Shown: positions 21,077 to 58,894 of the stretch, piece after piece | How the letters are laid out: each line of letters opens with the position of its first letter | Numbering within the stretch: the stretch's first letter is position 1 | From: Escherichia coli | GTDB lineage: Bacteria > Pseudomonadota > Gammaproteobacteria > Enterobacterales > Enterobacteriaceae | Length of the DNA stretch: 64,000 nucleotides | NCBI RefSeq assembly: GCF_024298765.1 | Contig: NZ_CP101210.1 | Direction: 5' to 3' (one strand) | Position numbers and translations under genes: made by a program | Notes under the pieces: model-generated | Database searches by the model: none | Seen by the model: only the letters and a program-made list of their open reading frames with translations | What the model was told of the DNA's origin: nothing

Positions 21077-21847
21077 TTATGCCGCTTTATGTGCTTCTAG
21101 CATGATGATATCACTGGTGAAAGAGCCATCATTCTGCAAGGCAAAATACGTTTTCACCTCTGTCGATGCGCTCTGTTGGTAAATGCGAATAGCGTCTACT
21201 AACGCTTCTGGCGTACGCATTCTCGCTACCCATGAAGAAAATTCCAGCGGTAACTTATCTGTAATTAAATTATCAACTATCAGATTGGCTTCACTGATTA
21301 ACGTCAACCACTCACCGCTGGCGTAGTTTCGTACGTGAGAGGTATCGCGTAATGCTTCTACCGTCTGTAACCAGATGTCGCGCACTGGATGACCCGGAGA
21401 CATTACGTCCATCACAATCAGCCTACCGCCAGGTTTCAATATCCTATTCACTTCTCGCAGTGCTGCACCAACATCATGCCAGTGATGGGCAGAATAACGG
21501 CTGATAACAATATCAAATGCGTTATCGGCAAATGGCAGGCTTTCGACATAACCCTGGCGGGTGGTGATATTTTTCAGTTGCCGGGCTTCGGCAGCTTGTG
21601 CCACAACATCCAGCATATGGGCAGATAAGTCATACGCCACCACCGTGCTCACGTTTTGCGCAGCGACAAAGCTGGCATGCCCTGCTCCGCAGCCCATATC
21701 AAGTACACTTGCATCAGGATAATCAGCCAGACGCACCGCCAGACGCTGTAAATCTCGTCCGGATGCATGTACGGTACTGGTCAGATATTCGCTGGCTTGA
21801 GAGCTAAACTGCTTTTCTACGTGGTCATGGTGGGATTGTGTTGTCAT
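21077..21847 (-). CDS. yafE: SAM-dependent methyltransferase YafE
   Basis: Methyltransferase motif LDMGCGAGH; start may differ from K-12 annotation. Confidence 0.85.
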   Translation of the reverse strand: MTTQSHHDHVEKQFSSQASEYLTSTVHASGRDLQRLAVRLADYPDASVLDMGCGAGHASFVAAQNVSTVVAYDLSAHMLDVVAQAAEARQLKNITTRQGYVESLPFADNAFDIVISRYSAHHWHDVGAALREVNRILKPGGRLIVMDVMSPGHPVRDIWLQTVEALRDTSHVRNYASGEWLTLISEANLIVDNLITDKLPLEFSSWVARMRTPEALVDAIRIYQQSASTEVKTYFALQNDGSFTSDIIMLEAHKAA

Positions 21848-21924
21848 TGCGCTGTCCTTTTGTTATTTGAGTATAAAAGGGCAGCGCCAAACGTTGGTCT
21901 GCCCTGTGGCAGACCTGACATACC

Positions 21925-38965: not shown

Positions 38966-39507
38966 GAAGGTTGTTGCCAGACGGTTAAGTTCACTTCCAG
39001 ATTATTCTTATCATCCGATAACCAGATAACACCATCCTGAATCGTTGCCTGCAGCGTCATAGTACGATCGGCAAAGGCGCTCACTTTCGCCAGTTGCTCG
39101 TCGTCCAGATACCAGACGGAAAGATTGGCAAACTGCGCACATTTGCTCTGATTTTGCTGCCACCAGATTTGCGCCGCCCGACTATTATAGGCAAACAGCG
39201 CCACTTCTGCGGCCTGGGTGCAGGCTTTCTTAATCCGCCGCTCATCCGGCAGCCCCAGCTCAATCCACAAATCAATACCCAAATGATCGTTACGCAGCCA
39301 CGCTTCCGGCTCATCATCAGCACACAAACCACGGGTAAATTGCAGACGTTCATCGGCATATTTTAGCCACGCCAGCAGGCGCAGCATCATGCGCTCCTGG
39401 GTTTCTGAAGGATGGCGCGCCAGCGTCAGAGAGGCATCGAGAAACTGGTTGCGGTCGAGATCGGCCACATTAACCGTCGCTTTATAAATTGTCGCTTTAA
39501 GCGCCAT
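38962..39507 (-). CDS. yaeQ: Conserved protein YaeQ
   Basis: 181 aa; synteny. Confidence 0.9.
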
Positions 39508-39672
39508 AAGAAAACTCCTTTCGAATCAGGAGGCCATTGTAACGGAATACGTGCAGTTGCGGCGCTGATATTGCAGAAATGAGTGTGGTATAGTCACCTT
39601 GCGAAACAGAGTTTATCTTCGTAGGCTTAGACTTGCATCCACGGTTAAGTCAGAGTGCTGACAGGAGGGCAT

Positions 39673-39873
39673 GTGGAAAAATATTGTGAGTTAATACGCA
39701 AGCGGTACGCGGAAATCGCCAGCGGAGACTTAGGATACGTTCCGGACGCGCTGGGCTGCGTTTTGAAAGTGCTGAATGAAATGGCTGCCGACGACGCCCT
39801 TTCTGAGGCTGTCAGGGAAAAAGCAGCATACGCTGCGGCAAACTTACTGGTGAGCGATTATGTCAATGAATGA
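39673..39873 (+). CDS. yaeP: UPF0253 protein YaeP
   Basis: GTG start preceded by AGGAGG; 66 aa. Confidence 0.85.
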
Positions 39874-40120
39874 TACGTATCAACCAATCAATTGTGATGA
39901 TTACGATAATCTTGAGCTCGCCTGCCAGCATCATTTAATGCTGACACTTGAGCTGAAAGATGGCGAAAAATTGCAGGCGAAGGCCAGCGATTTAGTCTCC
40001 CGCAAAAATGTGGAGTATCTGGTCGTCGAGGCCGCTGGTGCAACCCGCGAGCTGCGTCTGGATAAAATTACCAGCTTTAGCCACCCGGAAATCGGTACGG
40101 TGGTGGTGAGCGAGTCCTGA
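39866..40120 (+). CDS. rof: Rho-binding antiterminator Rof
   Basis: Starts [17 protein letters not shown]; 84 aa. Confidence 0.9.
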
Positions 40121-40129
40121 TTGACTTTC

Positions 40130-40162
40130 GCCGGATGCGACGTTTGATGCGTCTTATCCGGC
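40130..40162. repeat. REP element between rof and tilS
   Basis: GCCGGATGCGACG...CGTCTTATCCGGC palindrome; overlaps the 3' end of tilS. Confidence 0.6.
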
Positions 40163-41467
40163 TTTCACTTGACTAAGCGTTTTCTGCCAGACAAAACTGA
40201 CGCCATTCTCACCTACAGCCACACCTTCTTGCGTCACAAATACCCCTGCCGCCGCAATCAGCGTTTCGCCATAAAACAGCAGTGGCGTGGTGTCACGTAG
40301 CCACGGCGGAACGCCTAACTCTTGCCAGATTTTCTTCAGCTTACGTCCGCCGTTGCGCCCGACAATATGCAGCAATCCTGGCGCTTTGAAACGCACGCTG
40401 ACCGCTTCGTCTGCACGCGGAGGGCGAATATCGCCTCCCGCAGTAAGCTGTACACTTCCCAGCCCCGCCGGTAATTCCAGCGGTTGTAGCCACGTCTGCC
40501 ACGGCAGAATGGTTTCGCTTTGCCCAGTGACGGATTTAATCCACCACAGTTGCGACTGATAGCGGCGGATTTCAAACGCACCCAAACGTAAACAGGGGGA
40601 AGCATCTTCTCGCGCCAGCGCCACTTCCTGCCAGATCCTCACCAACGCGTCGCGGGAAGGCATCGGTGCATTCTGCCCTGCCAGCCAGCGGCGGATAATC
40701 GCCGCGCGACGGGCATCGCTCATTGCCACCATTGGCGCAATCTTTAACGTTCCCTGTTGCGTTTGGCAGTGCGCTAAATCATCCGCCAGCAGTTCATCTA
40801 ACAGGCTCTCTTGTTCAGCGCAAAGTGCGGCGCTGCGGGCTGTTGCTTCGGCAAAATGCGGCCAACGCTGCTGCAATAATGGCACTACGCGCAGGCGCAG
40901 AAAGTTACGATCGTATGAGTCATCCTGATTACTTTCGTCTTCAATCCAGCGTAAACCATGCGCTAACGCCCACTGCTCCAGTTCCCCCCGCGTGCGGGCA
41001 AGCAACGGGCGGATAAGCCGTGTTCCGGCAAACTCCGAAACTTCCGCCATAGCCGAAAGCCCGGCAGGGCCGCTACCGCGTTTTAGCGCCAGCAGAAAGG
41101 TTTCACATTGATCGTCGAGATGTTGCGCTGTAACCAGCACTTCACCGGGCAACAAGGTGCGGGCAAATGCCTGATAACGTGCCTGCCGCGCCTGGGCCTC
41201 AATACCTAGCCCCTCTTGCGCAAGCTGCACACGTTCGACCACCAGCGGCACCTGCCACTGTTGGCAGATGTTTTCACAATGTTTCACCCAGGCATCAGCA
41301 TTGGCGCTTAAACCGTGATGCACATGGATAGCGCGCAGAGTGACGCCCGGATTTTCCGTCCGCCACTGCACCAGTTGATGCAGTAAGACAGTAGAATCAA
41401 GGCCGCCGCTAAAGGCCACCAGAATCTGGCGTGAGGAGAGAAGTTGTCTATTGAGCGTGAGTGTCAT
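40154..41467 (-). CDS. tilS: tRNA(Ile)-lysidine synthetase
   Basis: PP-loop SGGLDS; 437 aa. Confidence 0.93.
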
Positions 41468-41531
41468 GATGGTGCGATTTTACAGTAGCAATGCCGGGCA
41501 CGTTACCGGGCAAATGCGGCGATGACAAGCC

Positions 41532-41921
41532 TTACTGCTCATACAGTTCCAACGGCAGCCCGTCCGGATCGTTAAAGAACGTGAAGCGTTTTTGCGTGTA
41601 GGGATCGACACGGATGGCTTCACACTTCACGTTATGGCTTTCAAGGTGCGCCACTGCCGCATCGATATCATCAACGCTAAAAGCCAGATGACGCAGGCCG
41701 CAAGCTTCCGGTCGGCTGGGGCGCTCCGGCGGGAACGGAAATGAGAAAAGCTCAATCACATATTGCCCATTAAGCGCCAAATCCCCTTTCCACGAGTCGC
41801 GCGCTTCGCGATAGACTTCGCTTTGCAGCGTGAAACCAAGAATATCGCAGTAGAAAGCTTTGCTCATCGCATAATCCGTCGCAATAATCGCAATATGGTG
41901 AACCTGTTTTAAACCCAGCAT
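41532..41921 (-). CDS. yaeR: Glyoxalase/VOC-family protein YaeR
   Basis: Start chosen at MLGLKQVHHIAI; the ORF track adds a 9-codon upstream extension. Confidence 0.85.
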   Translation of the reverse strand: MLGLKQVHHIAIIATDYAMSKAFYCDILGFTLQSEVYREARDSWKGDLALNGQYVIELFSFPFPPERPSRPEACGLRHLAFSVDDIDAAVAHLESHNVKCEAIRVDPYTQKRFTFFNDPDGLPLELYEQ

Positions 41922-41977
41922 AACGTCTCCTTTATTTGTTAACAGCACGTTACTCGCCCGGAAGCCGCTCTGGCAAG

Positions 41978-44119
41978 TTATCCTGCCATTTTTAGGACTC
42001 GTACGCGGTAAACACCGTCTTCGTCCTGTTTCGCGCCGTGAATATCCGTTTCAAAACCGGGGTAATGTTGCCCTACGGAACAAAGCATCAGTAGAAAATC
42101 GAGTACCGTGCGGCTCTCTTCGGTAAGCATTTCTCCCGGCATCAGCAGCGGTACGCCGGGTGGATAAGGCAGGATCATATTTGCCGATACTCTACCGACC
42201 AGTTGTTCCAGCGCAATGGTTTCTACTTCGCCTTTAATCTGTCTCTGCCATGCCTGATGTGGCGTCATGATCATCTCCGGCAAGGTATCAAATGCCCGCA
42301 ACATCAAACCGGGAAGATCGTGTTTACGAATCAGCTTATGGATCCCTTGCGCCAGATCCTGAATACGCATATTGCGGTAGAAATCGGGATCTTCTGCATA
42401 GAGATCGGGCAGCATATTTTTGATCCGCAGGTTGAGATCGTAAGAGCGCTTAAATTCCGTCAACCCACGCAATAATCCCATTGCTTTGGTTTTATCGATG
42501 CCAATACTAAAGAGAAACAGCAGGTTATAAGGGCCGGTTTTCTCTACTACGATCCCACGTTCGTCGAGGAATTTTGCCACCAGCGCCGCCGGGATCCCCT
42601 CCTCGCTCATATTGCCCTGCTCGTCCATCCCCGGTGTCAAAATAGTGACTTTAACCGGATCGAGAAACATGTGATTGGCATCCGCATCGCTAAAGCCGTG
42701 CCACTGTTCGCCAGGCGCAACGGGCCAGCATTCGGCTTCATCCACCTGCGGCGGTTGCCAGATATCGAAAAACCAGCCGTCAGACTCTTCCCGCAGCCGC
42801 TGGACCTCTTTGCGAAAATGCAGAGCTCGTTCTACTGAACGGTTAATCAGCCGTTTGCCCGGATTACCACGCAACATCGCCGCCGCCGTCTCAACAGAAG
42901 CAACAATGGGATAACTGGGCGAGGTGGTGGTATGCATCATAAAGGCTTCGTTAAACGCCTCTTCGTCATACTCACCTTTAATGTGGATCAGCGACGCCTG
43001 CGATAACGCCGCCAGCATTTTGTGGGTCGACTGCGTTTCGAAGATCACTTTTCCTGCAACACGCTCGCCGCTCATACCACTTTTACCCTGGTAGATTGGA
43101 TGAAAATGGGTGTACGGCACCCAGGCAGAATCGAAGTGAATCGACGGGACATCCAGCGTCTGTTTGATCCAGTCGGTGTTGTAGAGCAAGCCATCATAGG
43201 TGGAGTTGGTGATCACCGCATGAACCGGCCATTGTGCCTGCGTGGTGGCAGCGACTTTCTCTTCGATGCTGTCGCGAGTAAATTCACGGCGCGGGATCCC
43301 ACCCAGAATCCCCAACGCATTACGCGTCGGTTTCAGCCAGACTGGCACTACATCGTTCATCATCAACAGATGCGCCAGCGATTTATGACAATTGCGGTCG
43401 ATCAACAGCGTACTGCCGAATGGCGCGGCGTACATACCCACAATTTTGTTCGACGTCGATGTTCCGTTGGTAACGATATAACTCTGTTCCGCGCCAAACG
43501 TCCGCGCGATGTACTCTTCCGCTTCCAGGTGTGGCCCGGTGTGGTCGAGCAACGAACCAAGCTCGGTGACCGAAATAGAGACGTCCGCCTTGAGGGTATT
43601 CCCGCCGAAAAAATCATAAAACAGACAGCCAACCGGGCTTTTTTGATATGCGGTGCCGCCCATATGCCCCGGCGTACAAAAGGTGTACTTCCGCTCTTTG
43701 ACGTAGGTAAACAAGGCTTTCGTGAACGGCGGCGTAATGTTATCAAGATATTCGTTGGTGTACTGACGCATACGAATGGCGATATCTTCCGCCTGCCCCA
43801 GCGCATATTCAAAAAACCAGAGCGCCATCCGCATATCCTGCACGCTGACATCCATCGTCGAGTGGGTGTTGATGAAGGCATAAAGCGGGAGATATTCATT
43901 AAGTTGATTGATATCGCTACATAAATCGAGACTGTACTCATCCCAGTCAAAAATCACGCCGCAAATTCGTGGGTTATGTTCGATAAACTTCAGCAAATCA
44001 ACGCTGTTTTGTGGCCAGATAATCTGAAAGCCTTGCGCCACCAGCGCCGACTCCAGTTCTTTGATGGGCTCATCTTTATAAAAGACGCCATGCGGTCCCA
44101 TAATGGCAATGATGTTCAT
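41978..44119 (-). CDS. ldcC: Constitutive lysine decarboxylase
   Basis: 713 aa; recalled match; synteny next to accA. Confidence 0.95.
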   Translation of the reverse strand: MNIIAIMGPHGVFYKDEPIKELESALVAQGFQIIWPQNSVDLLKFIEHNPRICGVIFDWDEYSLDLCSDINQLNEYLPLYAFINTHSTMDVSVQDMRMALWFFEYALGQAEDIAIRMRQYTNEYLDNITPPFTKALFTYVKERKYTFCTPGHMGGTAYQKSPVGCLFYDFFGGNTLKADVSISVTELGSLLDHTGPHLEAEEYIARTFGAEQSYIVTNGTSTSNKIVGMYAAPFGSTLLIDRNCHKSLAHLLMMNDVVPVWLKPTRNALGILGGIPRREFTRDSIEEKVAATTQAQWPVHAVITNSTYDGLLYNTDWIKQTLDVPSIHFDSAWVPYTHFHPIYQGKSGMSGERVAGKVIFETQSTHKMLAALSQASLIHIKGEYDEEAFNEAFMMHTTTSPSYPIVASVETAAAMLRGNPGKRLINRSVERALHFRKEVQRLREESDGWFFDIWQPPQVDEAECWPVAPGEQWHGFSDADANHMFLDPVKVTILTPGMDEQGNMSEEGIPAALVAKFLDERGIVVEKTGPYNLLFLFSIGIDKTKAMGLLRGLTEFKRSYDLNLRIKNMLPDLYAEDPDFYRNMRIQDLAQGIHKLIRKHDLPGLMLRAFDTLPEMIMTPHQAWQRQIKGEVETIALEQLVGRVSANMILPYPPGVPLLMPGEMLTEESRTVLDFLLMLCSVGQHYPGFETDIHGAKQDEDGVYRVRVLKMAG

Positions 44120-44216
44120 GTGTTCCTCCTGGAAAATCCTTCCTTAATCATAGCCTGCTCAAACCGTGGCGATAAAAAAGGGCCACCGAAGTGACCCTTT
44201 TCAGAACATTTGCCGA

Positions 44217-45176
44217 TTACGCGTAGCCGTAGCTCATCAGGCGCTGATAACGACGATTTTTTAAATCTTCAGTGCTTAACACGTCGAGATCGGCCAGATC
44301 CGCCAGCAGCTGCGCTTTCAGAGACGCCGCCATCGCTTCCGGGTTACGGTGAGCACCGCCCAGCGGTTCCGGGATGATGGAGTCGATCAGTTTCAGCTCT
44401 TTCAGACGCGGAGCGATGATACCCATCGCTTCAGCCGCCAGCGGCGCTTTGTCAGCGCTCTTCCACAGAATGGATGCACAACCTTCCGGCGAGATAACGG
44501 AATAGGTGCTGTATTGCAGCATATTCACTTTATCGCCCACGCCAATCGCCAGCGCACCACCAGAACCACCTTCACCGATAACCGTACAAACTACCGGTAC
44601 GCCGAGGCGAGACATTTCACGCAGGTTGCGTGCAATGGCTTCAGACTGACCACGTTCTTCTGCGCCCACGCCCGGATAAGCCCCCGGGGTGTCGATAAAG
44701 GTGATGATAGGCATCTTAAAACGTTCAGCCATTTGCATCAGACGCAGTGCTTTGCGGTAACCTTCTGGCGCTGGCATACCAAAGTTACGGCGAATTTTTT
44801 CTTTGGTTTCACGACCTTTTTGATGACCAATGATCATCACCGGACGACCATCGAGACGGGCGATACCACCGACGATAGCTTTATCGTCTGCATACGCGCG
44901 GTCGCCAGCCAGTTCGTCAAATTCATCAAATGCCAGGCGAACGTAATCCAGGGTATAAGGACGCTGTGGATGGCGTGCCAGTTGCGCAATCTGCCATGCA
45001 CCGAGATCGGCGAAGATTTTACGCGTCAGTTCTACGCTTTTTTCACGCAGACGATGCACTTCTTCATCGATGTTAATATCCAGTTTCTCATCCTGACGGC
45101 TAACCGCGGTCAGAGAATCGATTTTCGCTTCCAGCTCTGCAATCGGCTGTTCAAAATCAAGGAAATTCAGACTCAT
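44217..45176 (-). CDS. accA: Acetyl-CoA carboxylase carboxyltransferase alpha subunit
   Basis: 319 aa; recalled match. Confidence 0.95.
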
Positions 45177-45188
45177 AGTATTCCTGTA

Positions 45189-48100
45189 TTAGTCAAACTC
45201 CAGTTCCACCTGCTCCGAACCAATGAGGCCACGGAGATCGTTTAATAAACGATCGCTCGGAGAGACACGCCACGTCGCGCCAAAACGCAATCGCGCGCGT
45301 GCATCCGCCCTCTGATAGTAGAGATGTACTGGAATTGTCCCAGAGCGGTGGGGTTCCAGAGACTGACGGAGTCGGTTTAAAAGCTGGTCATCAATTTGCC
45401 TGTCCGTCAGCGAGATAGCAAGCCCGCGAGCATATTTTTCCCGGGCTTCGTCAATATCCATCACTTCGCGAGCGGTCATTTTAAGCCCACCGCTGAAGTC
45501 ATCAAAGCTGACCTGTCCGCTGACGATAAGTATGCGGTCTTTTTCCAGCAATTGCTGGTATTTATCCAGGGCGTCAGTAAACAACATCACTTCCAGCCGC
45601 CCGGAACGGTCATCCAGCGTGCAGATACCGATACGATTGCCGCGCTTGGTGACCATAACCCGCGCGGCAACAACGAGCCCCGCAGCCGTGATGACTTTAC
45701 CACGTTCTGTCGGGTGCATGTCTTTCAGCCTTACGCCTCCGACATAACGCTCAATCTCTTTTAAATACTGGTTGATAGGGTGTCCCGTCAGGTACAGACC
45801 TAACGTTTCACGTTCCCCATCTAACACCACCTGCTCCGGCCACGGTTGGCAGCTGGCGTAGGATTGTTCAATTTGTTCCGGCTCTTCGGCCAGCACGCCG
45901 AACATATCGGCCTGACCGATAGCTTCCGCTTTCGCGTGTTGATCTGCCGCTTTTAACGCATCGCCCAGCGAGTTCATCAGCGCCGCGCGGTGTGGCCCAA
46001 GACGGTCAAACGCCCCGGACATGATCAGTTTTTCCAGCACCCGCCGGTTTAACTTTTTGGTGTCGGTACGGGCGCAGAGATCAAACAGTTCGCGGAAGTA
46101 GCCGCCTTTATTGCGGGCTTCGATGATCGCCTCAATCGGACCTTCACCGACCCCTTTGATCGCGCCAATACCATACACGATTTCGCCGTCGTCGTTGACG
46201 TGGAAATGGTAAAGACCGGAGTTTATATCCGGCGGCAGGATTTTCAGCCCCATCCGCCAGCACTCATCCACCAGGCCCACCACCTTCTCGGTATTGTCCA
46301 TATCGGCGGTCATTACCGCCGCCATAAACTCCGCCGGATAGTGCGCTTTCAGCCATAACGTTTGATATGACACCAAAGCATAGGCCGCAGAGTGCGATTT
46401 GTTAAATCCGTAACCCGCGAATTTCTCCACCAGGTCGAAGATTTTCATCGCCAGTTCAGCGTTGATTCCGTTCTTTTCTGCACCTTCAGCAAATACAGAA
46501 CGCTGCTTAGCCATCTCTTCCGGCTTTTTCTTACCCATCGCACGACGCAGCATATCCGCGCCACCGAGGGTATAACCAGAAAGCACCTGCGCAATCTGCA
46601 TGACCTGTTCCTGATACAGGATGATGCCGTAGGTTGGCTCCAGTACCGGTTTCAGGCTTTCATGCTGCCACTGCACGTCCGGATAGGAGATCTCTTCGCG
46701 ACCATGTTTACGGTCGATAAAGTTATCCACCATCCCTGATTGCAACGGGCCGGGGCGGAACAGTGCCACCAGTGCGATCATATCTTCGAAGCAGTCAGGT
46801 TGCAGACGCTTGATCAGGTCCTTCATGCCGCGCGATTCAAGCTGGAATACCGCCGTGGTTTCCGAGCGTTGCAGCATGTCGAAGCTTTTCTTGTCATCCA
46901 GCGGGATCGCGGCGATATCCAGCGGCGGCTCGCCATTCTTCGCCCGCCGCTTGTTGATCATCTCCAGCGCCCAGTTGATGATGGTGAGCGTACGCAAACC
47001 GAGGAAGTCGAACTTCACCAGCCCGGCGTATTCAACGTCGCTTTTATCAAACTGGGTGACCGGATGTTTGCCCTCTTCATCGCAATAAAGCGGCGCAAAA
47101 TCAGTAATTTTGGTCGGCGCGATAACCACCCCACCGGCGTGCTTACCGGCGTTACGGGTGACCCCTTCCAGTTTGCGCGCCATGTCGATCAGCGCCTTAA
47201 CTTCTTCATCCGCTTCGTAGATTTCCGGCAGCTGTGGCTCGGCTTCAAACGCTTTCGCCAGCGTCATACCCGGATCGGGCGGGATCAGTTTCGAGATACG
47301 ATCGACAAATCCGTACGGATGCCCCAATACACGGCCTACGTCGCGGATCACCGCTTTCGCCGCCATCGTACCGAAGGTGATAATCTGCGATACCGCATCG
47401 CGACCGTACATGTCCGCTACGTGCTCGATAACCTGGTCGCGTTTCTCCATACAGAAGTCAACGTCGAAGTCAGGCATGGAGACACGTTCCGGGTTAAGGA
47501 AACGTTCGAACAGCAGGTCAAATTCCAGCGGATCGAGATCGGTGATTTTTAACGCGTAGGCCACCAGTGACCCTGCACCAGAACCACGGCCTGGCCCTAC
47601 CGGTACACCGTTATCTTTCGACCACTGGATAAATTCCATAACGATGAGGAAGTAACCCGGGAAGCCCATCTGGTTGATAACCTGAAGTTCAGTATCCAGA
47701 CGTTCGTCATACTCCGGACGACGCTTAAGACGTTCTTCCTCGTCAGGGAATAAAAATGCCAGACGCTCTTCCAGGCCCTCTTTTGCACGCTTGACCAGAT
47801 AATCTTCGGTGCTCATGTCCCCGGTCGGGAACTGCGGCAGGAAGTATTCACCAAGGCGCACGGTCACGTTACAGCGTTTGGCGATCTCAACGGTGTTGGC
47901 AAGGGCTTCGGGGATGTCGGCAAACAGCTCACACATCTCCTCTTCGCTACGCATATATTGCTGCGGCGAATAGTTACGCGGGCGTTTAGGATCGTCGAGG
48001 GTAAAGCCGTCGTGAATCGCGACGCGGATTTCGTGTGCGTCAAAGTCGCTGCTGTCGATAAAGCGCACGTCGTTGGTCGCCACAACGGGCAAACCGCGTG

Positions 48101-48671
48101 CTTCCGCCAGTTCCACCGCAGCGTGCAGATAGCTTTCTTCGTCCGGCCTGCCGGTGCGGATCAGCTCGAGAAAATAGCGATCCGGGAAGTGTTCTTCATA
48201 AAACGCGACACACTCATCTACCAGCGCGCTGTTACCACGCAAAAGACTGCGTCCAACGTCGCCCATGCGCCCGCCGGAAAGAAGGATCAACCCTTCATTT
48301 AATTCGATAAGCCAGTCGCGATCGATGATCGGCCCGGCGGTACCGTACCCGCGCTGATACGCTTTTGAGATCAGCAACGTCAGATTCTGATAGCCGGTAT
48401 TGTTCGCCGCCAGCACCGTCAGGTGAGTTAACTCATCACCCAGCAGGTCGCACTGGACGTTAAAATCCGCCCCGACGATGGGCTTAATCCCTGCGCCATG
48501 TCCCGCTCCGTAGAACTTCACCAGACCGCAAAGGTTGGTGAAATCGGTGATCGCCAGTGCTGGCATACCCAACGCTGCCGCCTTTTTTACCAGCGGTGCG
48601 GTTTTGGCCAGGCCATCGATCATCGAGTAGTCGCTGTGCACCCGCAGGTGTACGAAACGTGGTTCAGACAT
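45189..48671 (-). CDS. dnaE: DNA polymerase III alpha subunit
   Basis: 1160 aa; starts [16 protein letters not shown] (PHP domain). Confidence 0.97.
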
Positions 48672-48707
48672 CTTCAGATTCCGGTTTACTTAATCTCGAC
48701 ACAAGAA

Positions 48708-49304
48708 TCAGGACGCAAGTCCCAGTGCGCGTTTGACAGGCCCAAAGCTGCGCCGATGGTGTTCGGTCGCGCCGTGTTCAGCCAGTTTTTCCAGATGAAA
48801 AGCGGTTGGATACCCTTTGTGTTGGGCAAAACCATATTGCGGGAAAACAATATCCAGCGCTGCCATTTCGGCGTCACGCGTCACTTTCGCCAGGATAGAC
48901 GCGGCACTGATTTCCGGTACGCGGCTATCGCCTTTCACCACAGCCATCGAAGGCATCGGTAATTTCGGGCAGCGGTTACCATCAATCAACACATATTCCG
49001 GCGCAATATGCAGTCCAGCGACGGCACGCTGCATCGCCAGCATGGTCGCATGTAAAATATTCAGTTCGTCGATTTCGTGAGGTTCCGCGCGGCCCAGACT
49101 CCAGCTCAACGCTTTCTCTTTGATCTCTTCACAGAGCGCCAGACGGCGTTTTTCGCTCAGCTTTTTGGAATCATTCAGCCCGGCAATTGGGCGCGCCGGG
49201 TCAAGGATCACCGCAGCGGTGACGACCGCGCCAACTAACGGCCCGCGTCCGACTTCATCCACACCCGCAACCAGCTGCGTGTGCGGATAGACAAATTCGA
49301 TCAT
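48708..49304 (-). CDS. rnhB: Ribonuclease HII
   Basis: 198 aa; recalled match. Confidence 0.95.
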
Positions 49305-50449
49305 TGTGCTAACTCCAGAACGGCTTGTGCCGCCTGCTCATCGGCATTGCAGCGGATCTGCTGATGCAGCTCGCGGAAGGTGTCGTGCATCGCATGGCTG
49401 GTTTTCCCGTTCGCCAACAGCGGTAACAGCGCCGCAGCCAATTTTTGCGGCTCACACTCTTCCTGCAATAGCTCTTTGACTAACTCTCTGCCCGCCAGCA
49501 GATTTGGCAGCGAGACATAATCAGTTTTCACCAGTCGCTTCGCCAGCCAGAAGGTGAAAGGCTTCATGCGATATCCCACTACCATCGGGCATTTAGCCAG
49601 CATACACTCCAGTGCTGCCGTACCCGACGCCAGTAGCGCCGCATCACTGGCGACCATCGCCTCACGGCCCATTCCATCCAGCAAATGAACCGACAGGTCT
49701 GGCGCGACTGCAGCTTTGATGCGTTCAAACTGCTCGCGGCGTTTGGCATTCACCAGCGGCACCACGATTTCGAGATCCGGATATGTCTGGCGCAAAAGCT
49801 GGGCCGTTTTCAGGAAATCGGCACTAAGCATTTCGACTTCTGCACCACGGCTGCCCGGCAACAATGCCAGACAGTGGGCATCGTAAGGGATCCCCAGCAC
49901 ATCACGGGCACCATTTTTATCTGGATCTAATGGCATGGCATCAGCCATGGTATGACCGATAAAGCGGCACGGTACGTTGTATTTGTCATAAAACGCCTTT
50001 TCGAAAGGCAGAAATGCGAGCACCAGATCGGTGGCTCTGCCTATTTTGAAAACGCGTTTCTGTCGCCACGCCCAGACGGACGGACTGACGTAATGAATGG
50101 TTTTGATACCCTGCTTTTTGAGGTTACCTTCAAGAGTAATATTGAAGTCAGGCGCATCAATACCAACAAAAACATCTGGCTTCAGTTCGCCAAAACGCTT
50201 TGTCAGATCGGCACGAATATGTAGTAAGCGACGCAGACGACCGAGCACTTCAACAATGCCCATCACTGCCAGTTCTTCCATTTCGTACCAGGCTTCGCAG
50301 CCTTCAGCCTGCATTCGTGGCCCGGCAACACCAACAAAGCGGGCGTTGGGCACACGTTCTTTCAGAGCGCGGATTAAACCGGCCCCCAGGATATCGCCGG
50401 AGGTTTCTCCGGCGACCAGGGCAATCGTTAATGGACGCTGTTCAGTCAT
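49301..50449 (-). CDS. lpxB: Lipid-A-disaccharide synthase
   Basis: 382 aa; recalled match. Confidence 0.95.
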
Positions 50450-51237
50450 TAACGAATCAGACCGCGCGTTGAGCGTGCAAAGAAATCGGTAAAGGCTTTC
50501 ACTTCCGGATATGTTTCCGCCAGTTCAGCAATTTCCGGTTTCACTTCATCGAGCGTTTTACCGCTACGATAAATCAGCTTATACGCATTGCGGATAGCGG
50601 TAATCGCCTCACGGCTGAATCCGCGGCGCTTCAGCCCTTCGATATTGACACCGAACGGCGTTGCGTGGTTACCCTGCGCAATGACATAAGGAGGGACGTC
50701 CTGCGCCACACCGGAGCAGCCGCCAACCATCACATGCGCACCAATGATGCAGAACTGATGGACTGCGGTCATGCCGCCGATGATCGCGAAGTCGTCAACC
50801 GATACGTGACCCGCCAGCGTTGCGTTGTTGGCGAGGATGCAGCGGTTACCTACCGTACAATCGTGCGCAATGTGCGCATTGATCATCAGTAAGTTGTCGC
50901 TGCCCACCTTCGTCAATCCACCGCCCTGGACTGTGCCACGATGAATGGTGACGCTTTCGCGAATGCGGTTACGATCGCCGATTTCCACGCGGGTCGGTTC
51001 GCCAGCATATTTCAGATCCTGGTTAACTTCGCCGATGGAGGCGAACTGATAAATCTCATTATCGCGGCCAATTTTAGTATGACCATTCACGACAACGTGA
51101 GATTTCAGTACGGTACCCTCACCAATTTCGACATGGGGTCCAACGATACAAAAAGGACCAATGTGAGCGTTCGCGCCAATCGACGCGCCCTCTTCCACAA
51201 TGGCGGTTGGATGCACAAAGGCGGATTTATCAATCAC
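50449..51237 (-). CDS. lpxA: UDP-N-acetylglucosamine acyltransferase
   Basis: 262 aa; hexapeptide-repeat protein. Confidence 0.95.
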
Positions 51238-51240
51238 GTA

Positions 51241-51696
51241 TCAGGCCTCCCGGCTACGAGCACACATCATCGTTGCTTCGCAAACTACTTTACCGTCGAC
51301 CAGAGCAACCCCTTTAAAACGGGTCAGGCCGCGGCGCGTTTTTTCGAAAGTGACTTCCATGATCATTTGATCGCCAGGCACGACCGGGCGCTTAAAGCGC
51401 GCTTCGTCAATACCGGCGAAGTAGTACAGCTCACCCGGTTCCAGTTTTCCTACGCTTTTAAACGCCAGAATACCTGTTGCCTGTGCCATTGCTTCCAGAA
51501 TCAGCACACCCGGGAAAATCGGTTTTCCAGGGAAATGGCCCTGGAAGAATGGCTCATTGACAGAGACATTTTTTACTGCGCGCAGAAAACGACCTTCTTC
51601 AAAATCCAGCACGCGATCCACCAGTAAGAACGGGAAACGGTGCGGCAGAAGTTCTAAAATCTCTTCAATCTGCAGAGTATGAGTGTTAGTAGTCAA
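51241..51696 (-). CDS. fabZ: 3-hydroxyacyl-ACP dehydratase FabZ
   Basis: 151 aa beginning at a TTG codon ([27 protein letters not shown]); the ORF-track extension is an artefact. Confidence 0.92.
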
Positions 51697-51800
51697 GATA
51701 CTCTTCCTGTCAAAATATAAGAAACGACAATAATAACACGGCCTGCCGCAATCGTAAGAATGAGACAGGCCGTAAAGTTTGGCGAACAAAAGATGGAACG

Positions 51801-52826
51801 TTAGTCTTGTTGATTAACCTTGCGCTCAAGCGATTTCAGACGCTTGCTCATGTCATCAATGTTCATCACCAGTGCAGCGGTTTTGCGCCAGACTTTGTTG
51901 GGTTGCAGCGGAATGCCTGAGGAATAGACGCCTGGTTCAGTGATGGGACGCATCACCATACCCATGCCCGTAACCGTCACTTTGTCGCATATTTCCATAT
52001 GCCCGTTGATTACGCTGGCTCCGCCGATCATGCAGTAACGACCAATTTTCAGGCTGCCCGCCATAATGACGCCACCGGCAACTGCCGTATTGTCGCCAAT
52101 CACGACGTTATGTGCAATCTGGCACTGGTTATCAATGATCACACCATTGCCAATAACAGTGTCATCCAGCGCGCCACGATCAATGGTAGTGCAGGCACCG
52201 ATCTCCACGCGATCGCCAATAATTACGCGACCAATCTGTGGGATCTTCACCCAGTTACCACGATCGTTGGCATAACCAAAGCCGTCTGCGCCTACCACTG
52301 TTCCGGACTGGATCAGGCAATTCTGACCGATCTGGATCTCATGGTAAATGGTTACGTTCGCCCAGAGACGCGAACCTGCACCGATTTTGCTGTTTTTACC
52401 TACGAAGCAACCGGCACCGATAATCACGTTATCGCCCAGTTCAACGCCGGACTCAATCACCGCGTTAGCGCCAATCGATACGTTGTTACCCAGCTTCGCC
52501 GTCGCGTCAATCACCGCACTGGGTGCAATGTTCTGCGCGGGCTGCGGCGTGGTATCTAAAATTTGCGCCATACGCGCGTAAGTCAGGTAGGGATTCTTCA
52601 CTACCAGCGCGGCACTTTTCGCGAAAGGAAGATCGTCCTGGGTCATGACAACCGCGGACGCCTGGCACAAGCCTAAATGCTCACGGTATTTGGGGTTAAC
52701 CATGAACGTAATGTGACCTGTTTGTGCAGATTGCATGGACGCAACGCCGGTGATGACGATATCGCCATCACCGTGTAGTTCTGCATCCAACTGCTGCGCT
52801 AAATCAGCCAGTCGAATTGAAGGCAT
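51801..52826 (-). CDS. lpxD: UDP-3-O-(3-hydroxymyristoyl)glucosamine N-acyltransferase
   Basis: 341 aa; hexapeptide repeats. Confidence 0.95.
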
Positions 52827-52829
52827 TAC

Positions 52830-53315
52830 TTATTTAACCTGTTTCAGTACGTCGGCAGTGATGTCTTTTACATCGCTGCTGTTGTAAGCAACGGCATTTG
52901 CATCAACAACCAGATCGATATCCTGGCTGTTGGCAACGGATTTCACAGCAGTCTGGATACGAGTAACCAGTTTGCCGCGTTCTTCGTTGGAACGACGTGC
53001 GCGATCCTGCTCAAAAGCCTGCGCTTTCTGAGCAAAAGTCTGGCGCTGAGCCATCACGTCTTTTTCCAGCTTAGTGCGATCGCTGCCCGCTTTCATGGAC
53101 TGCAGCTTTTTCATTTTAGCCTGCAGATCGGTTTCCATACGCTGCAGTTCGCTGGCACGGCCTTTGAACTCGTTTTCCAGCGTGTTAGAAACACCGGTTT
53201 TCTGCGCTACCTGCTGGAACAGGCTGCCCATATTGACGATTGCAATTTTGTCAGCCGCCTGAGCAGAAGTTGCCAGTGCTAAACCGAGACCTGCAGCTAA
53301 TAACCACTTTTTCAC
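52830..53315 (-). CDS. skp: Periplasmic chaperone Skp
   Basis: 161 aa with signal peptide. Confidence 0.95.
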
Positions 53316-57262: not shown

Positions 57263-58120
57263 TTAAAGCGTCCTGAATACCAGTAACAACAAGCAAGCAA
57301 AGACCGGTACCGCAGCCGTCAGGCTATCAATACGATCTAAAATACCACCGTGTCCTGGAATTAAATGACCGCTGTCCTTAATTCCTGCTTCACGCTTAAA
57401 CATACTTTCGGTCAGATCGCCGAGCACTGAGGCTAACGCTGCGACAATAGAGCAAATGAGTAAGGTGACGGGAGCGACGTCGAGATTCACCCACATGCCA
57501 TAACCCCATGAGATTACCGCTGCGGTCACTAGTCCACCGATAAAGCCTTGCCAGGTTTTACCCGGAGAAACCTTCGGTGCCAGCTTATGTTTACCAAACA
57601 ATTTGCCAAACATATATGCGCCAGAGTCAGCGCCCCATACCAGGATCATGACATAGAGCAGCCATATTGCGCCACTGTAATGATTCTCGTCGTAGTGCCA
57701 GGCCCGTAACGCCAGCATGCCCCAGAAGAAGGGAACAATGGTTAGCACGCCAAAAATAAGGCGCAATGTTTTAGAGTTACGCCAGATTGCTGCGGAACCT
57801 GGGTAAAACAGCACCAGCAATAGCGCGACAATCCACCAACCCAGCGAAGCCCAAAGTGAGATTTCAACCAGCGGTTGATGAATATTTCGGTGATATTCCG
57901 GCAACAGAAAAAGCATCAGCGCCAACAATAACCCGCATAACACCGCCAACCATACTCGCTGCGAACGAGTGGTAAAACCGCTAAGCTGTCCCCATTCCCA
58001 CGCTGCCAGCATGCAGACCACCAGCGTTACAATGGCGAACCCCACCGGCGGCAACAGAAACAACGCCGCGATGACAACGGGTATTAACACAAAAGCAGAT
58101 ATCAGGCGATACTTCAGCAA
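57263..58120 (-). CDS. cdsA: CDP-diglyceride synthase
   Basis: 285 aa membrane protein. Confidence 0.95.
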
Positions 58121-58132
58121 AAGCGACCCCCA

Positions 58133-58894
58133 TCAGGCTGTTTCATCACCGGGCTCGGTGCCGCCGAAACGACGCTCTCGATTAGCAAAGGCATTTAACG
58201 CCCCTTCAAAGTCTTGTTCATCGAAATCGGGCCAGAGAACATCTGTAAAGTAAAGTTCGGCATAGGCAATTTGCCAAAGCAAAAAGTTACTAATGCGATG
58301 CTCCCCCCCAGTCCTAATTACTAAATCTACAGGGGCCAGTTCATGCATACAGACATGCTGGTTTAGCATCTCTTCATCTATCTGATCTGGTTGCAGGTTT
58401 CCTTGCTGCACCTTTTCAGCCAGTTGCCTGACTCCCTGGACTATATCCCAACGTCCACCGTAGTTCGCCGCAATATTCAGCGTCAGACCGGTATTCCCGG
58501 CTGTTAGCGCTTCAGATTTACGAATACGTTCTTGCAAACGCGAGTTAAAGCGACTGGTATCGCCAATAATACGCAGACGCACGTTATGTCGGTGCAGACT
58601 TTTTACTTCGCTATCTAGCGCCCACACAAACAGTTCCATTAACGCACTGACTTCCTGCGCTGGTCGGTTCCAGTTTTCACTACTAAAGGCATACAGCGTT
58701 AACGCCTCAATACCGTTGTTGGCCGCAAAAGAGACAGCCCGGCGGACGGATTTTGCCCCGGCTTTATGCCCAAAGGCACGAATCTTCCCTTGCTTTTTTG
58801 CCCAGCGACCATTGCCGTCCATAATGATCGCAACATGACGACAGCCATGCGCTGGCAATTTTTCGCTAAGTGGTTGAGTAGCAGACAACATCAC
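58133..58894 (-). CDS. uppS: Undecaprenyl-diphosphate synthase
   Basis: 253 aa; recalled match. Confidence 0.95.
   Translation of the reverse strand: MMLSATQPLSEKLPAHGCRHVAIIMDGNGRWAKKQGKIRAFGHKAGAKSVRRAVSFAANNGIEALTLYAFSSENWNRPAQEVSALMELFVWALDSEVKSLHRHNVRLRIIGDTSRFNSRLQERIRKSEALTAGNTGLTLNIAANYGGRWDIVQGVRQLAEKVQQGNLQPDQIDEEMLNQHVCMHELAPVDLVIRTGGEHRISNFLLWQIAYAELYFTDVLWPDFDEQDFEGALNAFANRERRFGGTEPGDETA

Follow-up and report, generated by a model that had tools for sequence, protein, structure and literature searches.

Initiation in Escherichia coli uses ATG in 83% of genes, GTG in 14% and TTG in 3% (quoted in bioRxiv 10.1101/063800). Belinky et al. (PMC5622118) described a general pressure toward AUG, with AUG-to-UUG switches being strongly selected against, as well as a general trend for non-ATG starts to go with a stronger Shine-Dalgarno (SD) sequence. 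In K-12, fabZ (b0180) has been named among the essential genes with a TTG start, in a paper that dissected the start of another essential envelope-lipid gene, cdsA, by mutagenesis, showing that several neighbouring codons are able to initiate and that an ATG version is toxic upon induction (PMC11448367). The K-12 yaeP-rof operon (b4406, b0189) has a GTG behind AGGAGG, with rof overlapping the end of yaeP, an overlap that is general in Enterobacteriaceae according to the literature. Finally, the K-12 rdcA-rdcB locus (yjdA-yjcZ) pairs a dynamin-family gene with a downstream YjcZ-family gene that has a non-ATG start and overlaps it by 4 nt. We compared these systems with their counterparts in a 64,000-nucleotide stretch of E. 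coli DNA (the window), which is inverted in orientation relative to K-12 and 100% identical to E. coli strain 104 and others, a lineage that differs from K-12. The MG1655 record NC_000913.3 served as the curated K-12 reference, and NZ_CP029164.1, which is 100% identical to the window, as the strain for comparison with PGAP, the automated annotation of NCBI.

Non-ATG start codons in the window and the placement of fabZ and yaeP

Eleven of the 59 annotated CDS in the window have a non-ATG start (8 GTG, 2 TTG and 1 CTG), which is not a significant enrichment over the ~17% found genome-wide (binomial P(>=11) = 0.42), nor is the span from yaeP to fabZ enriched, with 3 of its 13 genes being non-ATG (P = 0.38); the non-ATG share in the window is thus the genomic average. 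Among the window genes, SD pairing is stronger for the non-ATG genes than for the others (-7.6 vs -5.3 kcal/mol, one-sided p = 0.013). The initial annotation had listed fabZ, yaeP and a gene in an island as non-ATG genes, and all three stand. However, its list was incomplete, since it left out lpxA, although this gene lies within the very span from yaeP to fabZ, as well as skp, frr, gmhB, yafD, cdsA and ispU elsewhere in the window. Two adjacent starts are both used in ispU, and the cdsA TTG, at 58120 in the window, is accompanied by back-up initiation codons (PMC11448367). The features around fabZ and yaeP are as follows.

51241..51696, minus strand: fabZ CDS (151 aa), TTG start at 51696-51694 (K-12 b0180 and PGAP starts, Pfam)
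51701..51708, minus strand: weak SD-like sequence AGGAAGAG before the fabZ TTG (duplex -4.3 kcal/mol)
51697..51789, minus strand: non-coding lpxD-fabZ spacer, the 31-codon extension in the ORF list (TTG at 51789)
51737..51774, minus strand: predicted terminator-like hairpin in the lpxD-fabZ spacer, 11-bp stem followed by a U-rich tail
50449..51237, minus strand: lpxA CDS, GTG start at 51237-51235 (GTG at the same place in K-12 b0181)
39663..39668, plus strand: Shine-Dalgarno sequence AGGAGG, 4 nt before the yaeP GTG (read from the sequence)
39673..39873, plus strand: yaeP CDS (66 aa, UPF0253), GTG start at 39673-39675 (K-12 b4406, PGAP, Pfam)
39860..40120, plus strand: rof CDS according to PGAP (ATG 39860, 86 aa), overlapping the yaeP end; the K-12 ATG is at 39866 (84 aa)

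The TTG at 51696 and the GTG at 39673 behind AGGAGG, which had been proposed as the starts of fabZ and yaeP, were read at these positions, and the contexts of the K-12 starts at 202101 and 214125 map onto them exactly, in agreement with PGAP. As NC_000913.3 has TTG and GTG, respectively, at these two sites, the statement that K-12 uses the same codons is also borne out. In the case of fabZ, the start position, the TTG, the upstream 25 nt, the first 15 residues and the length of 151 aa are all as in K-12, so that the start site shows no difference whatsoever. These 25 nt directly upstream are CTTATATTTTGACAGGAAGAGTATC, and the motif ACAGGAAGAGTAT upstream of fabZ is nearly invariant among Enterobacterales. 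The predicted spacer hairpin has an RNA fold z-score of -2.74 in a 137-nt region, and a scan for terminator-like structures matches the same site. The two proteins match their families, FabZ, the 3-hydroxyacyl-ACP dehydratase, having a FabA-like hot-dog domain (PF07977, 2.8e-40), and YaeP residues 1-65 aligning with positions 1-65 of the 65-position profile PF06786 (7.5e-34).

The start codons are also conserved in other species, with the reservation that the counts take in related genera, so that the lineages are not fully independent. After correction of alignment offsets, fabZ starts with TTG in 41 of the 48 species loci, comprising 23 of 26 Enterobacterales loci and all 18 loci of Vibrio, Aeromonas and Alteromonadales type. 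At the homologous yaeP codon, 16 of the 19 species loci have GTG and two have ATG; all 17 loci whose yaeP N-terminus is intact retain the GGAGG core. The lpxA GTG is found in 23 loci, i.e., in nearly all Enterobacterales and in Aeromonas. The computed SD/anti-SD duplex of yaeP is the strongest in the window (-10.8 kcal/mol), suggesting that a weaker GUG may here be paired with a very strong SD sequence; that of lpxA amounts to -10.3 kcal/mol.

The fabZ and yaeP starts are thus supported by curated annotation and comparative sequence. The TRAINSPOTTER N-terminomics table includes frr, ispU and gmhB and an internal site in skp, but it jumps from b0178 to b0200 and has no b4406, and fabZ, lpxA, rof and yaeP are absent; nor are fabZ, yaeP, lpxA, rof or cdsA mentioned in the TetRP paper and its supplements. 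The 1994 FabZ paper by Mohan et al. reportedly included protein sequencing. For FabZ, YaeP and the island protein, neither a measured N-terminus nor an initiation-site profiling signal was found in the literature searched, and a full-text search on fabZ with TTG, UUG or 'initiation codon' returned only the passing mention in the cdsA paper (PMC11448367).

The rof gene differs between the two annotations, overlapping yaeP by 8 nt in K-12, where the second ATG is taken, and by 14 nt according to PGAP, which takes the first. Of 24 loci, 22 have kept the first ATG, and 8 of them lack the second; rof constructs of both 86 aa and 84 aa exist in the PDB. PGAP and the comparison across species both point to the first ATG, at 39860, as the better start for rof, and the K-12 annotation, with its start at 39866, probably cuts off two codons.

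The RdcB-family gene of the island operon

The island carries a three-gene operon with the following features.

452..2848, plus strand: island gene 1, dynamin-family GTPase (798 aa; Pfam Dynamin_N 3e-18, PGAP)
2833..2836, plus strand: GGAG, possible SD sequence in the 3'-terminal part of the dynamin gene, 8 nt upstream of the middle-gene GTG (duplex -6.4 kcal/mol)
2845..3750, plus strand: island middle gene, RdcB/YjcZ family (301 aa), GTG start at 2845-2847 (PGAP WP_000203555.1)
3747..4817, plus strand: island gene 3, patatin-like phospholipase (356 aa), ATG start (Pfam Patatin 3.3e-25, PGAP)

That the middle gene would use the GTG at 2845 had been suggested before; this codon is indeed the first NTG of the 301-aa ORF, and PGAP places the start there as well. 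It overlaps the TGA stop of the dynamin gene as GTGA (CTGTGA at 2843-2848), and the ATG of island gene 3 in turn overlaps the stop of the middle gene by 4 nt. The middle protein matches the YjcZ domain over the entire profile (PF13990, 5.5e-71, positions 1-272 of 272) and can be aligned over its full length with 15 homologues (292-305 aa), with conservation starting from about residue 15. Three invariant residues, E23, K24 and F25, are located upstream of the sole other NTG, the GTG at 2920.

The arrangement is that of K-12 rdcA-rdcB in gene order, 4-nt overlap and non-ATG start. However, the stop/start overlap is TTGA in K-12 and GTGA in the island; the island protein is a distant paralogue of K-12 RdcB, with 31% identity over 283 residues; and the patatin-like phospholipase gene that follows in the island is absent from the K-12 locus. 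Regulation of the diguanylate cyclase DgcE is known solely for the K-12 paralogue. The set of dynamin, RdcB-family and patatin genes recurs in four other genera, namely, Pectobacterium, Yersinia, Pseudomonas and Methylomonas, and at the homologous dynamin/RdcB-family junction, Yersinia has GTGA, whereas Pectobacterium and Pseudomonas have ATGA. Ribosomes finishing the dynamin gene would probably restart at the overlapping GUGA to make the middle protein. The variation of the start among ATG, GTG and TTG fits such translational coupling, which would explain why these codons interchange among the relatives of the island gene. A PADLOC scan of the operon for anti-phage defence systems yielded marginal matches only (LeoBC, 1.6e-4; phospholipase effector, 1.6e-4), with no stretch passing alone and no match at all for the middle gene.

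Retention of the fabZ UUG codon across orders

Although GTG and TTG starts in these genes are routine and had been annotated before, the retention of the fabZ TTG across several orders is the one point of mild interest. fabZ would combine the weakest canonical start codon, UUG, with a weak SD sequence, its duplex of -4.3 kcal/mol being an exception to the stronger pairing of the non-ATG genes in the window. In the Vibrio, Aeromonas and Alteromonadales-type loci, identity to E. coli at four-fold degenerate sites is down to ~30%, i.e., these sites are saturated. Because the TTG has been retained across orders while synonymous sites have become saturated, and because switches from AUG to UUG are generally selected against (Belinky et al.), so that long retention of a UUG itself argues for selection, fabZ has probably been under selection for a weak start. 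Such selection would probably act by capping, via the UUG, the output of FabZ from the shared skp-lpxD-fabZ-lpxA transcript. As (R)-3-hydroxymyristoyl-ACP is the precursor common to FabZ and LpxA (PMC10607373), we tentatively suggest, while giving it somewhat less than an even chance, that the fabZ UUG, which in enterics goes with a weak SD sequence, is ancient, predating the split of Enterobacterales, Vibrionales, Aeromonadales and Alteromonadales, and actively kept; that it limits FabZ relative to LpxD and LpxA, thereby helping to divide this precursor between phospholipid and lipid A; and that, together with the non-ATG starts of skp and lpxA, it may form a stoichiometry code for the operon.

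The main competing explanation is neutral drift, in which ATG, GTG and TTG are interchangeable and the non-ATG codons have no tuning role. This agrees with the interchange of all three codons at one and the same junction in the island gene and its relatives, with the ATG of yaeP in 2 of 19 species, and with a non-ATG share in the window that is merely the genomic average. However, drift does not readily account for a TTG kept in the great majority of fabZ loci despite a four-fold-site identity of ~0.30, under a general pressure toward AUG and against the change from AUG to UUG (Belinky et al.), nor for the lpxA GTG being fixed through Enterobacterales, or for the near-universal non-ATG start of skp within Enterobacterales (GTG, with TTG in 3 loci). 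We therefore regard drift as unlikely, though as a serious competitor to selection for a weak start.

It is far less probable that the T of the fabZ start is conserved by an overlapping element instead of the strength of the start. In E. coli and most enterics, GAGUAU (-7 to -2) can pair with AUACUC (+17 to +22), leaving the UUG in the loop of a start-enclosing hairpin, but the arms are conserved only among nearly identical Enterobacterales sequences with no covariation, and the hairpin is absent from the 18 distant loci that have the TTG. Likewise, TTG and the second codon ACT form TTGACT, which is near the -35 consensus, but ACT is found only in enterics, being replaced elsewhere by GCN or GAY, so that TTGACT is not conserved, and a promoter scan found no minus-strand promoter at the fabZ start. 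Accordingly, both the hairpin and the -35 box were rejected.

Alternative start sites and gene boundaries

The least credible of the alternatives, to which we give hardly any weight, is that one or more of the true starts lie elsewhere, at TTG 51789 for fabZ, GTG 39655 for yaeP or GTG 2920 for the island gene. In its favour, the mechanical ORF list opens fabZ and yaeP at the first two of these sites, the Pfam YjcZ profile begins at island residue 26, which is exactly the internal GTG, and cdsA offers a precedent for multiple starts. However, curated K-12 annotation (fabZ and yaeP) and PGAP support the sites given by the initial annotation, and the alignments largely refute the others. In the case of fabZ, Erwinia, Rosenbergiella and Pantoea have a stop 6 codons ahead of the TTG, and many Alteromonadales have one 1-5 codons ahead of it, with no NTG in between in either group; the upstream stretch is not conserved as protein, and many species have no alternative NTG within 12 codons downstream. 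In the case of yaeP, the in-frame GTG at 39655..39657 (plus strand), where the ORF list starts a 72-aa protein, was rejected, since E. albertii has GTA there, most species lack the codon, and locus L012 has a stop codon in its place. In the island gene, residues 15-25, including the invariant ones, are conserved upstream of GTG 2920.

Since K-12 and PGAP annotations agree, the homologous start codons correspond, and stops or conserved residues exclude the alternatives, we accept the three starts. We are highly confident that the starts of fabZ, yaeP and the island RdcB-family gene are ordinary bacterial start codons, correctly placed, and that the longer ORFs are artefacts. Initiation by fMet-tRNA at the UUG of fabZ or the GUG of yaeP and the island gene would give Met as the first residue in each case. 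The view that such starts are ordinary biology, relevant to gene boundaries, holds in light of the agreement with curated K-12, the cross-species alignments and the average non-ATG frequency. As cdsA shows, a single annotated start can hide minor alternatives; its start has been dissected by mutagenesis (PMC11448367), whereas no comparable experiment on fabZ turned up in the literature searched.

The main value of checking start codons lies in annotation. The ORF list had been said to over-extend several genes, and an in-frame NTG indeed lies further upstream in 20 of the 59 annotated CDS, the over-extension being 31 codons for fabZ, 6 for yaeP, 9 for yaeR, 37 for rnhA and 21 for rpsB. A longest-ORF rule would therefore lengthen FabZ by 31 spurious residues and YaeP by 6, and misplace the starts of those 20 window genes. 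The result on the fabZ UUG refines known biology and is not a discovery, but its retention may provide a cheap, testable handle on the ratio of FabZ to LpxA and LpxD, i.e., on the balance between phospholipid and LPS.

Non-ATG starts in the window and in curated annotation

We extracted the start codons of the K-12 MG1655 record (NC_000913.3), in which fabZ is located at 202101-202556 and yaeP at 213925-214125, and then mapped their sequence contexts into the window, whose orientation is opposite to that of the K-12 chromosome. The K-12 starts of fabZ, yaeP and lpxA map to TTG at 51696 (-), GTG at 39673 and GTG at 51237, respectively. The stretch 39400-52000 (12.6 kb) matches several complete genomes at 100% identity, e.g., strain 104 (NZ_CP029164.1), and is found in 5424 of 5426 E. 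coli genomes. The NCBI automatic annotation (PGAP) of this identical strain gives fabZ, yaeP and lpxA the same starts as K-12, and places the middle gene of the island operon at 2845-3750, naming its product 'diguanylate cyclase regulator RdcB family protein'. The initial annotation had assigned non-ATG starts to fabZ, yaeP and this island gene, and this observation is confirmed: the fabZ TTG (51696-51694, -) and the yaeP GTG (39673, with AGGAGG at 39663-39668) are read in the sequence and match both K-12 and PGAP, and the island GTG at 2845, where a 301-aa ORF has its first NTG, is identical to the PGAP start. GUG and UUG are read by the initiator tRNA as Met, with an efficiency that in reporter assays is about 10-100% of that of AUG (10.1101/063800); by this route all three proteins would begin with Met.

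Across the entire window, mapping of the PGAP annotation gave 59 intact CDS, 48 of which start with ATG, eight with GTG, two with TTG and one with CTG.

Non-ATG starts among the 59 intact CDS of the window (PGAP)
GTG: rdcB-family gene, yeeU-family gene, yafD, gmhB, yaeP, lpxA, skp, frr
TTG: fabZ, cdsA
CTG: DUF957 gene adjoining IS debris, 15364

The CTG start at 15364 is probably an annotation artefact, and the non-ATG starts of frr, cdsA, gmhB, yafD and skp are the same in the K-12 curation. Compared with the E. coli start usage of 83/14/3% quoted in 10.1101/063800, non-ATG starts are in excess neither in the window (11/59, P = 0.42) nor between yaeP and fabZ (39673-51696; 3 of 13 genes, P = 0.38). 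The earlier reading of these starts as ordinary biology is supported, as is its warning that the ORF track over-extends genes, since in 20 of the 59 a longest-ORF rule would move the start to an in-frame NTG further upstream. Two further genes differ in length from K-12. TilS (40154-41467, -) has 437 aa in the window versus 432 aa in K-12, with a different C-terminus, and the following methyltransferase has 256 aa (start 21847) versus 207 aa for K-12 YafE.

21077-21921, minus strand: yafE-like methyltransferase; the K-12 yafE start maps to 21921

General selection toward AUG has been reported, with stronger Shine-Dalgarno (SD) sequences offsetting weak starts (Belinky et al., PMC5622118). Accordingly, computed SD/anti-SD pairing was stronger for the ten GTG/TTG genes than for the 48 ATG genes (-7.6 vs -5.3 kcal/mol, one-sided p = 0.013), the strongest being that of yaeP (-10.8 kcal/mol) and lpxA (-10.3 kcal/mol).

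As for experimental evidence, the TRAINSPOTTER N-terminomics table confirms the GTG of frr and that of gmhB, and for ispU it confirms two neighbouring starts, GTG and ATG. These form GTGATG (58891-58894, -), K-12 using the GTG and PGAP the ATG one codon later, with peptides reported for both N-termini (2026 table, PMC13245402). The cdsA TTG at 58120 (-) is the K-12 start; mutagenesis of this gene has demonstrated that codons 1, 2, 6 and 7 are all able to initiate, and that the ATG version is lethal when induced (PMC11448367). The published N-terminomics and initiation-profiling data that we searched contain no measured N-terminus or initiation signal for FabZ, YaeP, LpxA or Rof.

Retention of the fabZ TTG

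We collected 80 species loci, often holding both fabZ and yaeP, by scanning for AccA with 10-kb flanks. Among 48 loci, the homologous fabZ start codon is TTG in 39, or in 41 after correction of two alignment offsets (Acerihabitans and Colwellia 75C3). Of these 41, 23 are from Enterobacterales (of 26 loci; two Photorhabdus and Arsenophonus have instead an ATG one codon downstream), and the other 18 are all of the Aliivibrio, Aeromonas and Alteromonadales-type loci. ATG is found in three gammaproteobacteria that are more distant, and one further locus is ambiguous. In many species TTG is the sole possible start, because a stop codon precedes it by 1-6 codons without an intervening NTG, and no other start occurs within 12 codons downstream. 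In the 18 distant loci, FabZ is about 60% identical to the E. coli protein, and four-fold degenerate sites are only 30% identical, i.e., saturated, yet TTG is kept, which argues that the T is held by selection rather than by short divergence time. From these alignments, retention of the TTG probably reflects selection.

Neither a hairpin around the start codon nor a TTGACT promoter box accounts for this conservation; both were tested and rejected. fabZ is the exception to SD compensation, combining UUG with a weak SD (-4.3 kcal/mol). FabZ competes with LpxA for (R)-3-hydroxymyristoyl-ACP, and a proper balance between FabZ and LpxC is critical (PMC10607373). The simplest reading would be that fabZ is purposely left with a weak start.

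Of the four envelope genes in a row here (50449-53315, -), three have non-ATG starts, namely, skp (GTG), fabZ (TTG) and lpxA (GTG), with lpxD starting at ATG. Non-ATG starts of the three are retained in most Enterobacterales loci; in Alteromonadales, judged from provisional N-termini, skp appears to start mostly with TTG. The 104-nt lpxD-fabZ spacer contains a terminator-like hairpin with an 11-bp stem followed by GUUAUUAUUGU (51737-51774, -); between the two genes, this predicted structure might attenuate the transcript or make it more stable.

Starts of yaeP and rof

In 19 loci, the codon homologous to the yaeP start is GTG 16 times and ATG twice (Enterobacter sp. Bisph1 and Budvicia), and the Pfam UPF0253 profile aligns with YaeP from residue 1. 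The upstream GTG chosen in the mechanical ORF list was rejected, as it is not conserved and one species has a stop codon in its place. The yaeP GTG also shares bases with an ATG in another frame (ATGTG), from which a 7-codon ORF runs (39671-39694, +); the preceding AT is present in nine of ten Enterobacteriaceae loci with a GTG start. This ATG may compete for initiation, or the AT may merely be a context preference.

For rof, the K-12 curation takes the second ATG (39866, 84 aa) and PGAP the first (39860, 86 aa). Of 24 Enterobacterales loci, 22 have the first ATG, whereas eight lack the second (MSTN.., MSIN.., MSKD..), which argues that the K-12 start probably omits two codons. Rof structures in PDB have 86 aa (1SG5 and 8PTM) or 84 aa (8W8D).

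The island operon and its middle gene

The island gene belongs to a three-gene operon, distantly paralogous to K-12 rdcA-rdcB and with a phospholipase gene in addition.

452-4817, plus strand: dynamin-family GTPase, RdcB/YjcZ-family protein and patatin-like phospholipase genes, with 4-nt overlaps between genes

Database search returned many homologues of the middle protein of about 300 aa at full coverage, and in an alignment of 16 sequences a variable leader (about 14 residues) precedes a strongly conserved part that begins at about residue 15. The only other NTG, GTG at 2920, was rejected as the start since the invariant E23, K24 and F25 lie upstream of it. The GTG at 2845 and the TGA that ends the preceding 798-aa ORF overlap as GTGA. 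The same gene trio is seen in the DNA of four homologues (Pectobacterium, Yersinia, Pseudomonas and Methylomonas), and the homologous junction reads ATGA in two of them (Pectobacterium and Pseudomonas) and GTGA in Yersinia; the K-12 rdcA-rdcB pair has the same 4-nt overlap, with a TTG start. Thus, the start position is kept while codon identity drifts, as a putative translational coupling at the overlapping stop and start would allow.

PADLOC returned only marginal matches on the operon (LeoBC, phospholipase effector). The operon may encode a module that acts on membranes or serves in defence. The island (1-16700) adjoins a tRNA-Asp gene (about 16618-16694) at the site of aspV in K-12, taking the place of the sequence that follows aspV there. 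It also carries DUF932, an antirestriction gene, a JAB-domain gene and a yeeU/cbtA toxin-antitoxin pair, along with IS66 and IS630 remnants with frameshifted genes.

Modest by-products of this analysis are the deep conservation of the fabZ UUG, a rof that is likely longer by two codons, and the conservation of the dynamin/RdcB-like/patatin trio; the non-ATG starts themselves are biology already known, of use for setting gene boundaries.
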